Part shown: positions 44,944 to 64,000 of the stretch, one piece after another
How the letters are laid out: every line of letters begins with the position of its first letter
Numbering within the stretch: position 1 is the first letter of the stretch
Source: a virus
Virus record (IMG/VR): IMGVR_UViG_3300048597_000118
Location: 37,170 to 101,169 of that record
Direction: 5' to 3' (one strand)
DNA: 64,000 nucleotides
Program-made: the position numbers and the translations under genes
Notes under the pieces: model-generated
Told to the model about the DNA's origin: nothing
What the model saw: the letters and a program-made list of their open reading frames with translations, nothing else
Databases searched by the model: none

Positions 44944-45759
44944 TTAAAAATTAAGTTTGGCTTTGTCTCCATACACGATTATGGCGTAGGAGTCATACAC
45001 TCTTGCAGCTTCTTCAGGAGTAGGATAAGTACCTATAGGGCGTGAGACTCCATTGACGCTAATCTGTGCTCTCCAACCTGATTTATGCTTAACGACGCCT
45101 CTATAAGTAGTATTGACAGGCTCGTCATCTACACTAAGCAGATTAGTACGTATAAAATTGTTTATCTGCTGAGTAGATAACCGTGCGCTGTCTAATCGTT
45201 GAAATAATCGTAGTGCTTTATCTACTTCTGTTTCAGCATATAAAAGGTTATCTACTGAGGGTATTGGGACAGACCGTACCTCTGAGACAGCTAAACACTC
45301 TGGAGCTTGTTTAATCTTACTAAATACAGAGCGGACTCCTATAGAACTAAATAAGGCATCAAGCCTCTTGGCACGCTCACTTGTCTCTCTTGCATCGTAG
45401 GCGTAGTACTTAACTAAAGAAGAAACTACTACCTCAGGCAGCATATAATTCTGATGGGTTCGTGTAGTGGCGGCCGTCGTAAGTTGTGGTTGGTTCTTAT
45501 AATCAAAGCCAGCTATAGGTTTTAACGAATCAGGTAAATCTTCAGGCCGCCAGTCAGGTAACCGCCGCAGCAAACCTTTTGCTAGCCCGTTTGCTTGTTT
45601 GCGCCCATCTATAAGAGATGAATGGTGCATATTAAGTAGACGGCTGGCTCCGCGTATAGAGCAGAAATAGTTGTTATCTCTTACTTCTAGCTCTGCATTA
45701 AGAAGCTGTCCTAATTCCGCATAGGACACTTCTGGTGGACATGGTGTTATTTGTGCCAT
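44944..45759 (-). CDS. AP2-domain DNA-binding protein
   Basis: C-terminal YRGV...WRAQI...IGTYPTPEEAARVYD..A...YGDKAKLNF is a canonical AP2 domain. Confidence 0.85.
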   Translation of the reverse strand: MAQITPCPPEVSYAELGQLLNAELEVRDNNYFCSIRGASRLLNMHHSSLIDGRKQANGLAKGLLRRLPDWRPEDLPDSLKPIAGFDYKNQPQLTTAATTRTHQNYMLPEVVVSSLVKYYAYDARETSERAKRLDALFSSIGVRSVFSKIKQAPECLAVSEVRSVPIPSVDNLLYAETEVDKALRLFQRLDSARLSTQQINNFIRTNLLSVDDEPVNTTYRGVVKHKSGWRAQISVNGVSRPIGTYPTPEEAARVYDSYAIIVYGDKAKLNF

Positions 45760-58810: not shown

Positions 58811-59056
58811 AATAGTCGTGTAATGATTAGTCAGTAATGAGGCGGCACCGCAATGGGGTGGCACAGTCCCTAAGGCTAGTTACAAGGCAAAGCCAGGGGA
58901 GTAATAGTGGGAACGAGGAGTGTCTGAAAAAGAGGATTATCCGGCGAGCTGTCTGTCATAGCGAGAGTTATGGGGGACAGCTGCTTAGTAGTGTTTGACT
59001 GCGCCGAGAGGTGTATGAAAAAGACTACTAATTGGAAAATTAATGAGGTAATCCCA

Positions 59057-59716
59057 ATGTCTAAAATCTATCTGACCACTCCAGAAGCTATTGCCGCTAA
59101 CCAAGAGGTACTAGCTAAATGCATTGCTGAACAAGGTATCCCCATGGATATCATCAAAATGCTGGGGGGTTTAGTAGTATTACCAACTAAGTTCGTTAAC
59201 AGTAAAGTATTTAGCATCACTCGTCATGCAGATGGCGAATATGGTGTTTTGGTATCCTTAACTGGGACGTGCCGCGAAGGTCAATTGGTGCCCGGAGAGA
59301 AAGGTAACTATAATTTCTCATTGAAAGGCTGGCTCAATATGAGTCTGTCTGCCGATGAGAATAGTGGTGTTATGCCCTTGACCGATAAGGAGGCCACGGT
59401 GTTAGAAACTTGGCTGACTGCGGCTAAAGACGAGAAAGAGAACTTATTCATCAATTTCAATGGGCATCCTATCGTCCTATGTCTTTGTATTGAAGAAGTT
59501 CGTCCCTATGTATTAGATAGTAACGGCAATAAAATCCAAGTCGGTGTAAAAACTGATGGGTCTCCTGTTTACCAACTATCTGAGCCTCAACCTATTCTTA
59601 CTTATTCAGCCGGATTTACTCATGGCAAGTTAGGTGGGAAAGGGACCTCTGGTTCTAGTTTGACCATGGATGCAGTAAATGAAGCTCTAGAACGCTTCGC
59701 TGCCATGACCAAATAA
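59057..59716 (+). CDS. Hypothetical protein
   Basis: GAGGT RBS then ATG 59057 (MSKIYLTT...), in frame with the track ORF. Confidence 0.7.
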   Translation: MSKIYLTTPEAIAANQEVLAKCIAEQGIPMDIIKMLGGLVVLPTKFVNSKVFSITRHADGEYGVLVSLTGTCREGQLVPGEKGNYNFSLKGWLNMSLSADENSGVMPLTDKEATVLETWLTAAKDEKENLFINFNGHPIVLCLCIEEVRPYVLDSNGNKIQVGVKTDGSPVYQLSEPQPILTYSAGFTHGKLGGKGTSGSSLTMDAVNEALERFAAMTK

Positions 59717-59730
59717 TCAATAATATAGTT

Positions 59731-59776
59731 GACTACTAGGTCCCCATCATCGGGGATTTAGTAGTCTTCTTTTTTA
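59731..59776 (+). terminator. Terminator
   Basis: GACTACTA...TAGTAGTC stem followed by TTCTTTTTT. Confidence 0.7.
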
Positions 59777-59853
59777 ATGCCTAGCGGCGGGCTTTTTATT
59801 TATCCACCTACAGGTAAAAAGACAATTAATTGGAATGTATAAGGTAAAAACCT

Positions 59854-60237
59854 ATGGCAATTATTAATTGCACACCCCACCCTATTAATATTTTCGACAG
59901 AAATGACGCAGACAGCTCCAATCCCCGCCGACTGATGTTGGCTGAAGGGGCTGAGTGTATCCGCACCATTGAGCCGTCTGGCACAGTGCTTAATGCACAA
60001 CGTGGGGACTCTGACATTGTGGACATGATTGATGGAGTGCCGGTGAAAAGCCGGGCAAAGTTCATCAGCTTCGATGCATTGCCTGAAGGTGATGACTTCG
60101 TTATCGTCAGCCAACTGTTTAAGTCCGCTGTGGTTGACTGTGGTGGCGACACCAGTCGACTACTCTGTGTGGCTGAAACTGTTTTCCGCGTTGATTGCCC
60201 CACACCTGTGGGCTGCTGTGCCTTAGAAGTAGGTTAA
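59854..60237 (+). CDS. Conserved phage protein of the N(L/C)TPH family
   Basis: IINCTPHPINI...IEPSG...LPE...IVSQ...VGC motif set. Confidence 0.7.
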   Translation: MAIINCTPHPINIFDRNDADSSNPRRLMLAEGAECIRTIEPSGTVLNAQRGDSDIVDMIDGVPVKSRAKFISFDALPEGDDFVIVSQLFKSAVVDCGGDTSRLLCVAETVFRVDCPTPVGCCALEVG

Positions 60238-60251
60238 TCAAGATTGTCATG

Positions 60252-60686
60252 GTCTCCTCCTAGGGGGCTAGACAGTCTTTCTTTTTATTTACCATCTACC
60301 GGTAAAAAGACAATTAGGTGGAAATAATTTGGTAAAAAAATGAACACCGAACAAATCCGTGCCGCGCTTAACGAGAAAGAACAGAGTCTCCGTACAGCCG
60401 TAGGACACACCAAATGGCAGTCTTCCACAGGCATCCTCCCCATTGGGACAATGGATGAGGACCATTTGATTAACTCGGCTATATATGCTCAGCGAAAAGC
60501 TGATGACATTGCCCGACTCAATCTGAAGTTCGTGCCAAAGTACTTCGGGCGAACCTGGGAGGACTGGGTCACGTTATTCAGGGCGGAATTAGAGTACCGT
60601 CACTCTGAAGAAGGATTGGCAGAAGTTCCCTGGTAAAGATTGCCTGCGTCTCCTCCTAGGGGACCAGACAGCCTTTCTTTTTATTT
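60252..60686 (+). terminator. Two near-identical terminators (at ~60252 and ~60648)
   Basis: GTCTCCTCCTAGGGG...AGACAG.CTTTCTTTTTATTT repeated after the 59854 and 60340 ORFs. Confidence 0.65.
60340..60636 (+). CDS. Hypothetical phage protein
   Basis: W...G..PI..M...HL.N pattern seen in small phage proteins. Confidence 0.7.
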   Translation: MNTEQIRAALNEKEQSLRTAVGHTKWQSSTGILPIGTMDEDHLINSAIYAQRKADDIARLNLKFVPKYFGRTWEDWVTLFRAELEYRHSEEGLAEVPW

Positions 60687-60967
60687 GTCTATCTATATCA
60701 GTTTAGCTAAATAAGAAAGCTTCTCGTCTGGGGACAAAGACGACTCGTTTAACCAAGATACTACGCCCCCCACCCTAAAACCACCGCGCTACAACAGTTT
60801 GAGGTATGAACGAAGATGAACTCCCCCCAGAGGCCGGTCATTCGTCCACCATAAGGTAAAAAGATAATTAAATGGAGTCTTAAAGCTCCTTACCCTGGCT
60901 CGCTGCTCGAGGGGTTATAAAAACTAAGGAAAGGCAAAACAGCTCAGGTTCTCTATGACCTGACTGT

Positions 60968-61310
60968 GGATGGATAATATAGAGCCCTGCACGATTCGCA
61001 GTAAGTCTGCGGCTATACCTAGTGGGTAAAACTAGGTTTTCTATAAACTACGGAGTAATCCCATGCGAATATGAAGCCTAACCACAGCCTAAATTGAATA
61101 ATACCCCGGTGCTTAGGCACCCAACCTAACAGAGCTTAAATCGGCTCGACCTCTGTTAACACTTGTAGCAAACACTGCACGATGTTAAGGTCCAAGTATA
61201 AACATGAGGACTTCTACCGCCTTAAAGGGTAGATAATGCCATGATTAAGCTACTGGGCATGAAAAACAGTTAGTAGTAGCGGGGAGGCATCGATCCTTCC
61301 CCACCCATCC
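60968..61310 (+). ncRNA. Putative ~340-nt multi-hairpin structured RNA closed by GGATGG/CCATCC
   Basis: No ORF; consecutive stems (CGCAG/CTGCG, ACCTAGT/ACTAGGT, GGTGC/GCACC, TAACAGAG/CTCTGTTA, TTAACA/TGTTAA, GTCC/GGAC, TCTACC/GGTAGA, ATGCC/GGCAT, GGGAGG/CCTTCC). Confidence 0.5.
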
Positions 61311-61503
61311 TAGTGAGTACGCCTAAAGGTAGGGCGGTACATTACTATTATCAAGACGGTGCAGATTGGTAACCTGACGTCAAAGTTATACTCAGCAACG
61401 AGTATAAAGAGAGAAAGTTCACATTGGGTGGACAAGACTCTTTGAATAATAAGACTGTAGCTGGGCCTATAGTCTCTTGCGGGTTCAACTCCCGTCTCAC
61501 TTC
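61311..61503 (+). ncRNA. tRNA-like RNA with expanded central domain (~190 nt)
   Basis: Acceptor AGTGAG/CTCACT, TA linker, D arm CGCC-TAAAGGTAG-GGCG, T arm GCGGG-TTCAACT-CCCGT; ~140-nt branched insert instead of an anticodon arm. Confidence 0.65.
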
Positions 61504-61527
61504 CTTTTTACCCCCTAATAAACTCTT

Positions 61528-61881
61528 ATGAACAAAGCACTAGCCCGCCCCAATGTTGATTTCTACCAAAAGCAAAACAATAAAACTCCACATAAAGTGG
61601 ACCGCTATGAGCAGTGGCTCAAACAGGAAGACGAAAGGTTACTAGGGTTCCTGGAAGCACAAGCTGAGGAAGCCGGGCGCCGTAAAGCTCAGGGGTTACC
61701 GTTTAAGCGCCCTAACCTTAAGGGATTTGAGAAGCGGTATTTCGAGGAGAATTTAACCTCTTATGAGGAGTTACAGCGCCGCTCTGATAAAGAGAATACC
61801 GAGCGCACTGAGTTGATTGAATACTATTTGGCTAATGCCAAAGACCAGGCTGAGTTTGACGGTATCGTTGCTACGCTCTAG
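61528..61881 (+). CDS. Hypothetical charged helical protein
   Basis: 117-aa ORF followed by a terminator-like hairpin at ~61895-61928. Confidence 0.7.
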   Translation: MNKALARPNVDFYQKQNNKTPHKVDRYEQWLKQEDERLLGFLEAQAEEAGRRKAQGLPFKRPNLKGFEKRYFEENLTSYEELQRRSDKENTERTELIEYYLANAKDQAEFDGIVATL

Positions 61882-62137
61882 GTTGTATTGTTAGGGGAGA
61901 GGCTCCATGGGGAGGCTCTTTCTTTTTAATTGTCTGGGAATAAAAAGCTTAGGTATTTAACTAGAGGAGGTGTAGAGATAATTACCTTTAGACCTAAGCT
62001 GGGGATAGGAATACAATCAATACAATCTTAGCCCATGTTCGACTCAGCGCACAGAACAGTATCCGCGAGTATCTACGAAGCGATTATGGCGGAGCTGCCA
62101 ACACCACGCATTTAGACACACGTATCCTGCGAATAGC

Positions 62138-63625: not shown

Positions 63626-63660
63626 AGCTTAATTATACCAAGGGTTTGAGCCTCCGTCCA
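63626..63660 (-). promoter_or_regulatory. Sigma70-type promoter giving a leaderless transcript
   Basis: Minus strand TGGACG-17 nt-TATAAT (with extended TGn), then 6 nt and ATG. Confidence 0.6.
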
Positions 63661-63910
63661 CCGTGCGGTAAGAAGAAAACTAAATGGATGGTTTAATAAA
63701 AGAGCCCTGCCTAATAAGACAGAGCTGTACGTTGTACGATTAACACAATGAAATACAACCATCGACCTGCCGTCATTCTGCAGGCTTAATACTATGTTAG
63801 CTTAGGCTCAGTACCTGCGATTATAAGTCCCGCTAATATGGTACAGTCTGCTATAATTAAAAGACACTACTCTATTATCAATACTTTATTTTTTTATTGA
63901 GGCAAAACCT

Positions 63911-64000
63911 ATGGACGGCAAAGAAGTAATAAAAGTCCGCGCGCAAATTGGAAACATGGTGTGGGTTGGGTCAGATGGTCAATCTTCTTCCCTACGGCTT
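63911..64000 (+). CDS. Partial CDS running off the window
   Basis: GAGG RBS, ATG 63911 (MDGKEVIKVRAQIG...); TGCTATAAT upstream at ~63849. Confidence 0.5.
   Translation, partial: MDGKEVIKVRAQIGNMVWVGSDGQSSSLRL

Follow-up and report, generated by a model that had tools for sequence, protein, structure and literature searches.

A candidate tRNA-ended structured RNA in a putative non-coding RNA operon of a probable cyanophage

An intergenic locus of a virus genome has been found to hold a 343-nt candidate structured RNA, here called Unit 1, a homologue of which stands behind the same promoter motif in a second virus genome. We think it reasonably probable that the locus encodes a genuine, processed, tRNA-ended structured phage RNA within a non-coding RNA operon; the anatomy of Unit 1, its conservation and its lack of a family match are shown by the sequences, and its transcription, its processing and a function are inferred. 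Judged from the window sequence alone Unit 1 could have been chance, and its significance comes from the homologue only.

The window, that is, the whole stretch of 64,000 nt analysed, covers the right-hand 64 kb of an IMG/VR virus record of 101,169 bp, with an estimated completeness of 68%. The virus is most likely a cyanophage, distant from anything cultured, an assignment based on a 495-aa protein with 46% identity to gp030 of Microcystis phage Ma-LMM01 and MaMV phages, and on a major head protein with ~30% identity to Ma-LMM01/MaMV phages and one Microcoleus phage. The second genome (G001), a 205,544-bp IMG/VR contig about 91% complete, surfaced through a scan of IMG/VR with the promoter motif. 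It is syntenic with the window, the giant protein being 80-86% identical and the homologue of ORF248 (the ORF at 58970-59716) 55% identical.

Organization of the locus

The first-pass annotation had pointed to a gap of about 890 bp free of coding sequences (60637-61527), and no ORF of at least 60 aa was found there. A recoded ORF was rejected, since every frame holds stops of all three kinds (15-22 stops in each of the six frames), and so was a decayed paralogue or pseudogene, as protein-level similarity of the gap region to the adjacent ORFs or to the remaining genome was not found. The features of the region, all on the + strand, are as follows.

60642-60686, +: intrinsic terminator belonging to the upstream gene; the terminator at 60246-60290 is another copy (79%, repeat family D2)
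60842-60877, +: promoter-like motif CCACC-N4-GGTAAAAAGAnAAnTAAATGGA, copy 3 of 4 (other copies near 59800, 60288 and 63654)
60874-60889, +: 5'-terminal hairpin GGAGU-CUUAAA-GCUCC, predicted by folding
60878-60967, +: leader of ~90 nt from promoter to Unit 1, including a hairpin at 60939-60967
60968-61310, +: Unit 1, 343-nt candidate structured RNA (homologue at L062, 3836-4123, - strand, in G001)
60968-60973/61305-61310, +: Unit 1 P1, closing helix
60978-60982/61013-61017, +: Unit 1 P2
60985-60996, +: Unit 1 conserved single-stranded CCCUGCACGAUU
60996-61001/61007-61012, +: Unit 1 P2a
61017-61023/61031-61037, +: Unit 1 P3, with conserved loop GGGUAAA
near 61093-61106, +: Unit 1 conserved block UUGA..UACCC
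near 61122-61140, +: Unit 1 conserved block CAACC-UAACAGAGCUUA
61281-61302, +: Unit 1 terminal hairpin GGGGAGG-CATCGAT-CCTTCCC(C), 2-3 nt before the P1 3' strand
61311-61504, +: tRNA-shaped RNA of 194 nt, reported by ARAGORN only with the intron option
61528-61881, +: 117-aa ORF (ORF117), predicted to be co-transcribed downstream, with no family match assigned
61893-61930, +: intrinsic terminator ending the unit, a stem of -19 kcal/mol followed by UUUCUUUUU (the T-run is repeat family D5)
63654-63764, +: promoter copy 4 and a 78-nt mini-paralogue of the Unit 1 5' end (TGGATGGTTTAATAAAAGAGCCCTGC ... CTGTACGTT ... AACCATC)

The apparent transcription unit thus runs in the order promoter, 5' hairpin, leader, Unit 1, tRNA-shaped RNA, ORF (61528-61881) and terminator, and is preceded by the terminator of the upstream gene, which folds into a stem followed by CUUUCUUUUUAUUU. 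The core of the promoter motif gave six matches against 0.8 expected; its strong copies are all on the + strand, each heading an apparent unit, where it either follows a terminator or stands in a divergent gap, and the motif also heads the homologous locus of G001. The copies of CCACC-N4-GGTAAAAAGAnAAnTAnnTGGA (59800-59835, 60288-60323, 60842-60877 and 63654-63689) carry a -10-like GAYAAT without a conserved -35, and each transcript from them would begin with GGA plus a 5' helix. After copies 1 and 2 an ORF begins about 25 nt downstream, and after copy 3 lies the non-coding RNA locus. Equivalents of the 5' hairpin follow two G001 promoters (GGAC-GAAUUA-GUCC and GGAGUC-AUAA-GGCUCC). The leader is bounded by TGGA direct repeats and is missing after promoter copy 4, and from its sequence it has the appearance of a segment inserted where transcription begins. 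ORF117 has two partial homologues, P0002 and P0003 (85% and 60% identity), on short contigs only.

The closure of Unit 1 by GGATGG (60968-60973) and CCATCC (61305-61310), on which the first-pass annotation had built its candidate, is present and pairs with a probability of 0.95-1.0 in every context folded. Nevertheless, the accompanying description of the locus as hairpin-dense, with at least ten adjacent stems, did not stand, folding z-score, hairpin count and long-range helix all being within the genome background. In fact, Unit 1 folds with a z-score of -2.6, the background of coding windows being -0.73 +/- 1.27 with 11% of windows at or below -2.5, and the 288-nt copy in G001 keeps P1 in its minimum free energy (MFE) fold but has a z-score of -1.1, which is background level. 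Perfect hairpins of at least 6 bp number four in 60880-61310, against a background mean of 1.9, and as many are found in 15% of windows; of random 431-nt windows drawn from this genome, 23.5% contain a long-range helix of at least 6 bp with P>0.9.

Comparison with the homologous locus

In G001 the shared promoter is followed, in this order, by a 5' hairpin, a 288-nt Unit 1 homologue, a 7-nt spacer, a 72-nt cloverleaf, a 59-aa ORF and a terminator. The two genomes are separated by about one substitution per neutral site, a Jukes-Cantor estimate from the codon-position identities of the giant protein (51% at third codon positions and 46% at four-fold-type sites), and their neutral sites are near saturation. 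Against these near-neutral codon positions (46-51%), the 5' domain of Unit 1 is identical at 50 of 77 positions (65%), and the best local alignment between the two units scores 33 against 17.7 +/- 2.2, with a maximum of 26, in 500 shuffles. Further collinear blocks are found in both units (UUGA..UACCC, CAACC(G)UAA.AG.GCUUA and the 3' end CCACCCA(G)UCC), while the central part (56 against 97 nt) and the 3' part (167 against 72 nt) could not be aligned. The GGGU loop could pair with UACCC or with CACCCA, both pairings being conserved in sequence. The conservation of the 5' domain is not protein-coding, because its 19-codon ATG frame in the window is stopped after two codons in the G001 copy.

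Across the four helices P1, P2, P2a and P3, 23 of 24 pairs are maintained between the two sequences available (15 unchanged, 3 kept after one-sided and 5 after two-sided change, 1 broken). The comparative support is that of a single homologue, and covariation therefore rests on two sequences. All six pairs of P1 are maintained (G-C, G-C, A-U, U-A, G-C, G-C in the window and G-C, G-C, A-U, U-G, U-A, G-C in G001), with one G-C becoming U-A and one U-A becoming U-G, and an insertion that shifts the register of the 3' strand makes up for the G-to-U change. P2 keeps four identical pairs and loses one, without covariation, and P3 maintains its seven pairs with a U-A to C-G and a C-G to U-G change, its loop being GGGUAAA in the window and GGGUUAA in G001. 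P2a is a hairpin of 6 bp with a 5-nt loop, in the same place but of different sequence, with three two-sided changes and one one-sided change; its register was set with knowledge of the structure, and with P2a excluded 4 of 5 changed pairs are maintained (rough p ~0.05), which gives modest support.

The first-pass annotation had also likened the hairpin before the P1 3' strand, with its 7-nt loop, to the T arm of a tRNA next to its acceptor. The position agrees with this comparison; the loop CAUCGAU is not a T loop, however, and the 2-3 nt spacer is unlike that of tRNAs. In G001 the corresponding hairpin is GUGG-UUCGAGU-CCAC, with the canonical T loop UUCGAGU, and this copy vindicates the comparison although the window loop is degenerate.

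The small ORFs flanking the locus lack homology between the two genomes, those downstream (117 aa in the window, 59 aa in G001) being unrelated, and the RNA block is common to both genomes, so that the RNA block is what has been kept. Phage genomes are compact, and the retention of a 600-nt non-coding block behind a promoter while small genes were swapped points to a working RNA.

The adjoining tRNA-shaped RNAs

As had been claimed, a tRNA-shaped element directly follows Unit 1, beginning at 61311 with a spacer of 0 nt. The element comprises acceptor and D arm, a T arm of canonical form (GCGGG-UUCAACU-CCCGU) and a 9-bp extra arm, and a branched cargo of about 100 nt replaces the anticodon arm. 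With introns allowed, ARAGORN reads it as a tRNA with a 97-nt insert, the predicted anticodon stem of which is not credible. Its T arm is the sole canonical one with a G+C-rich stem found across 101 kb. The promoter scan gave no + strand site in 59729-61989, and without a promoter of its own the element is predicted to be cut from a longer transcript. The polycistronic precursor proposed in the first-pass annotation fits the layout, since both genomes place the unit and a tRNA-shaped RNA (with spacers of 0 and 7 nt) between the shared promoter motif and a terminator.

The place of this cargo-bearing look-alike is occupied in G001 (L062, 3757-3828, - strand) by a perfect 72-nt cloverleaf with the anticodon loop CUCAUAA (CAU) and an aberrant T loop, GGCAGUA, which was called by neither ARAGORN nor Rfam. 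In three unrelated IMG/VR contigs (L035, L041 and L046), the T arm GCGGGUUCAAYUCCCGU is found together with acceptor strands that match each other across 131-229 nt. All three viral loci are tRNA-framed RNAs with inserts, and two have Leu-type 5' ends.

A smaller relative after the fourth promoter copy

The segment TGGATGGTTTAATAAAAGAGCCCTGC (63685-63710), which follows promoter copy 4, resembles the start of Unit 1 (local similarity p ~0.007), and the CTGTACGTT that comes after it is the G001 form of the conserved single-stranded block. In the MFE fold, GAUGGUU/AACCAUC closes the 78 nt. From its sequence, 63685-63764 looks like a mini-paralogue within the leader of the next gene. This leader, of 220 nt, belongs to the ORF starting at 63911, which is preceded by a U-rich tract at about 63885-63898.

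Relation to known RNAs

The novelty of the candidate, which a match to a known family would have removed, survived the Rfam check. Rfam 15 gave no match at the gathering score in the 64-kb window, and at E<=10 the matches in both copies were at chance level only, so that neither GOLLD and ROOL nor tmRNA, the group I and II introns or the ribozyme families are supported; as no family reaches its threshold in either copy, nothing removes the novelty. Furthermore, among GenBank phages no DNA match was found to the window copy or the G001 copy, and Microcoleus phage My-WqHQDG has no counterpart of the locus. In IMG/VR, alignment of the giant protein gave no relative beyond G001, the 117-aa and 495-aa neighbour proteins led to no homologous locus, the exact terminal-hairpin pattern gave nothing, and a scan with a P3-based pattern returned seven chance matches inside ORFs and one true match (L062). 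JGI metagenome contigs, searched by alignment and with the P0002 protein, held no homologous locus; the back-translated PFKRPNLKGFEK pattern gave nothing in IMG/VR and GTDB genomes, and neither did the exact T arm plus acceptor pattern in GTDB genomes. A covariance model of the 5' domain (R2) has the window and G001 copies as its only genuine matches; a weak match beside the Ma-LMM01 RNA described below is on the antisense strand of a tRNA-Tyr gene and thus spurious.

The cloverleaf of a tRNA combines a 7-bp acceptor, a D arm and an anticodon arm with a 7-nt loop, and its T arm (5-bp stem, UUCRANY loop) stacks immediately on the acceptor. Unit 1 is not a tRNA, having a 6-bp closing helix, a 2-3 nt spacer, the loop CAUCGAU and no D or anticodon arm, and no tRNA was reported in it by ARAGORN at a lowered threshold with introns or by Rfam. 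Group I introns possess a conserved P3-P7 core and their flanking exons form a functional gene; Unit 1 was also rejected as one of these, with no Intron_gpI match at E<=10 in either copy, its neighbours being the leader on one side and a whole tRNA-shaped RNA on the other instead of two halves of an exon.

The stable RNAs C and D of phage T4 (species 1 and 2), non-decoding RNAs of about 120-140 nt in a tRNA gene cluster, are co-transcribed with tRNA-type genes and freed by tRNA-processing enzymes through their tRNA-like ends. By analogy, the arrangement of Unit 1 may resemble these most in function, a comparison made by description only, although the T4 RNAs lie within a true tRNA operon, whereas Unit 1 is 288-343 nt long, has its own conserved 5' domain and adjoins a non-decoding tRNA look-alike and an ORF. 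In MALAT1-mascRNA and the TMERs of gammaherpesvirus 68, a tRNA-like module within the precursor attracts RNase P or RNase Z and thereby sets the end of the non-coding RNA adjoining it in that precursor; these systems are eukaryotic or from an animal virus, and the likeness to Unit 1 would be one of inferred mechanism only. GOLLD and ROOL (PMC5737381; bioRxiv 10.1101/2024.12.08.627333) are likewise large structured RNAs, described in the first-pass annotation as often phage-associated and near tRNA genes, whereas Unit 1 is smaller, carries a tRNA-like module at its end and has no Rfam match.

Within the same broad phage group, Ma-LMM01 itself was found to have an unannotated tRNA-like RNA of 197 nt (NC_008562.1, 144879-145075; L013, 1880-2076; + strand), in which tRNA ends likewise surround non-tRNA cargo; about 30 IMG/VR contigs carry this form. 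It has almost the same T arm as the tRNA-shaped RNA at 61311-61504, and a compensated acceptor stem. An 18-nt motif, CAACCGnAAAGGGnCUUA, is common to the Ma-LMM01 RNA and the G001 Unit 1 (p ~0.006), which hints at a wider family as far as sequence can tell. In the window, a covariance model of the Ma-LMM01 RNA (R1, 17 variants) scores 18.9 bits at 61406-61504 only, mostly on the T arm, that is, on the neighbouring element, so that Unit 1 was rejected as an RNA of this type; R1 has no match in L062 or L071, nor anywhere in G001, and, therefore, membership of the family is not claimed. The Ma-LMM01 RNA also differs in having its own sigma-70-type promoter and in lacking a leader and a second RNA. 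This promoter is TTGACA-N17-TAGAAT, and the RNA lies 100 nt from a convergent tRNA-Tyr gene. The invariant CAACCGAAAAGGGACUUA of the Ma-LMM01 RNA is similar to a conserved Unit 1 block.

Proposed mechanism and alternative explanations

In the scheme proposed here, transcription would start at the GGA of the promoter motif, near 60874, and end at the terminator near 61930, giving one transcript with the 5' hairpin, the leader of about 90 nt, Unit 1, the tRNA-shaped RNA and the small ORF. Unit 1 would be a structured RNA of about 290-340 nt whose 6-bp end helix, beside a T-arm-type hairpin, forms a tRNA 'top half', and whose interior comprises a conserved 5' domain (P2, P2a and P3, with the loop GGGUWAA), two conserved central blocks and a variable periphery. 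RNase P acts on such tRNA-like top halves, an acceptor-type helix coaxially stacked on a T arm being cleaved on its 5' side. The geometry of Unit 1 is plausible for such a substrate, especially in the G001 copy with its canonical T loop. By analogy with mascRNA and MALAT1, a cut by the host RNase P at the 5' end of the 61311-61504 RNA would create the 3' end of Unit 1, and a second cut by the same enzyme may take place ahead of P1. The stable RNA so freed would be non-decoding and would act by binding a host or phage factor that recognises tRNAs.

The most serious alternative, which we nevertheless hold unlikely, is that the block is a long structured 5' untranslated leader which regulates or merely precedes the ORF and is never released, the tRNA-shaped element being a signal for mRNA processing or stability. 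Both genomes have a small ORF and then a terminator in the same unit, with no separate terminator after the RNAs, and promoter copy 4 also drives a 220-nt leader ahead of an ORF, all of which such a leader would explain. However, the conservation of the RNA block ahead of unrelated ORFs (117 and 59 aa) would be unexpected for a gene-specific cis-regulator, no riboswitch or leader family of Rfam matches, and the tRNA-like ends resemble RNase P substrates. The shared block also contains -10-like hexamers, namely TAATAT (60975-60980), TATAGT in G001 and TAATAA after promoter copy 4, and for this reason a signal at the DNA level was kept as a rival: a second promoter (-10 TAATAT/TATAGT) or an operator, with a start near 60987, no P1 in the RNA and the remainder a fast-evolving spacer. 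The invariant pairs of P2 and the background-level folding statistics agree with this idea, which is improbable all the same, given that P1 keeps 6 of 6 pairs with compensation, P3 exchanges a U-A for a C-G pair, conservation extends to the T-arm hairpin and the block at the 3' end, some 300 nt away, there is no conserved -35, and the promoter scan of 59729-61989 was empty on the + strand.

In shape, the nearest known RNA is tmRNA (SsrA; RF00023 and related), of which phage-encoded forms exist: its ends pair beside a T arm, it has a large internal domain and it lacks an anticodon arm, as in Unit 1 with its 288-343 nt, and the Rfam tmRNA model touches the neighbouring T arm (61480-61494). A tmRNA is recognised by the alanine identity pair G3-U70 within an acceptor stem of 7 bp and by a tag frame with a resume codon. 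Unit 1 has no G3-U70 pair, its helix is of 6 bp with a 1-3 nt spacer, CCA is not encoded, and no conserved tag frame is seen, because the middle of the unit could not be aligned between the window and G001; moreover, the ARAGORN tmRNA search was negative in both genomes and the Rfam tmRNA families gave no match on the unit. A divergent phage tmRNA, or an RNA derived from one, thus failing on identity pair, tag frame, stem geometry and both detectors, is very improbable.

Beyond the processed, tRNA-ended RNA that we favour, a bolder reading can be offered tentatively. Unit 1 and the 78-nt mini-paralogue may represent a new family of 'cargo' RNAs with tRNA-like ends in cyanophages related to Ma-LMM01, perhaps including the Ma-LMM01 197-nt RNA through CAACCGnAAAGGG. 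In such a family host processing enzymes would take hold of the RNA by its tRNA-like end, and the 5' domain with its GGGUWAA loop would be the working part, for example as a decoy or sponge for a translation factor or for a host defence that targets tRNAs. Cyanophages of bloom-forming cyanobacteria are ecologically important, and tRNA-shaped decoys would be a plausible counter to host defences that target tRNAs. If confirmed, the locus would add a structured class of about 300 nt to the few large phage RNAs known, extend the non-decoding tRNA look-alikes of cyanophages to a larger form, and provide a case from a bacterial virus of a tRNA-like module setting the end of a neighbouring RNA.

Other observations in the window

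A 17-codon ORF (MNEDELPPEAGHSSTIR) lies at 60808-60861, with GAGG just upstream, and its stop overlaps the promoter motif. Farther away, a 271-aa ORF on the - strand (44944-45759) gives weak AP2 and I-HmuI NUMOD-like matches and, by its sequence, is probably a free-standing homing-type endonuclease.
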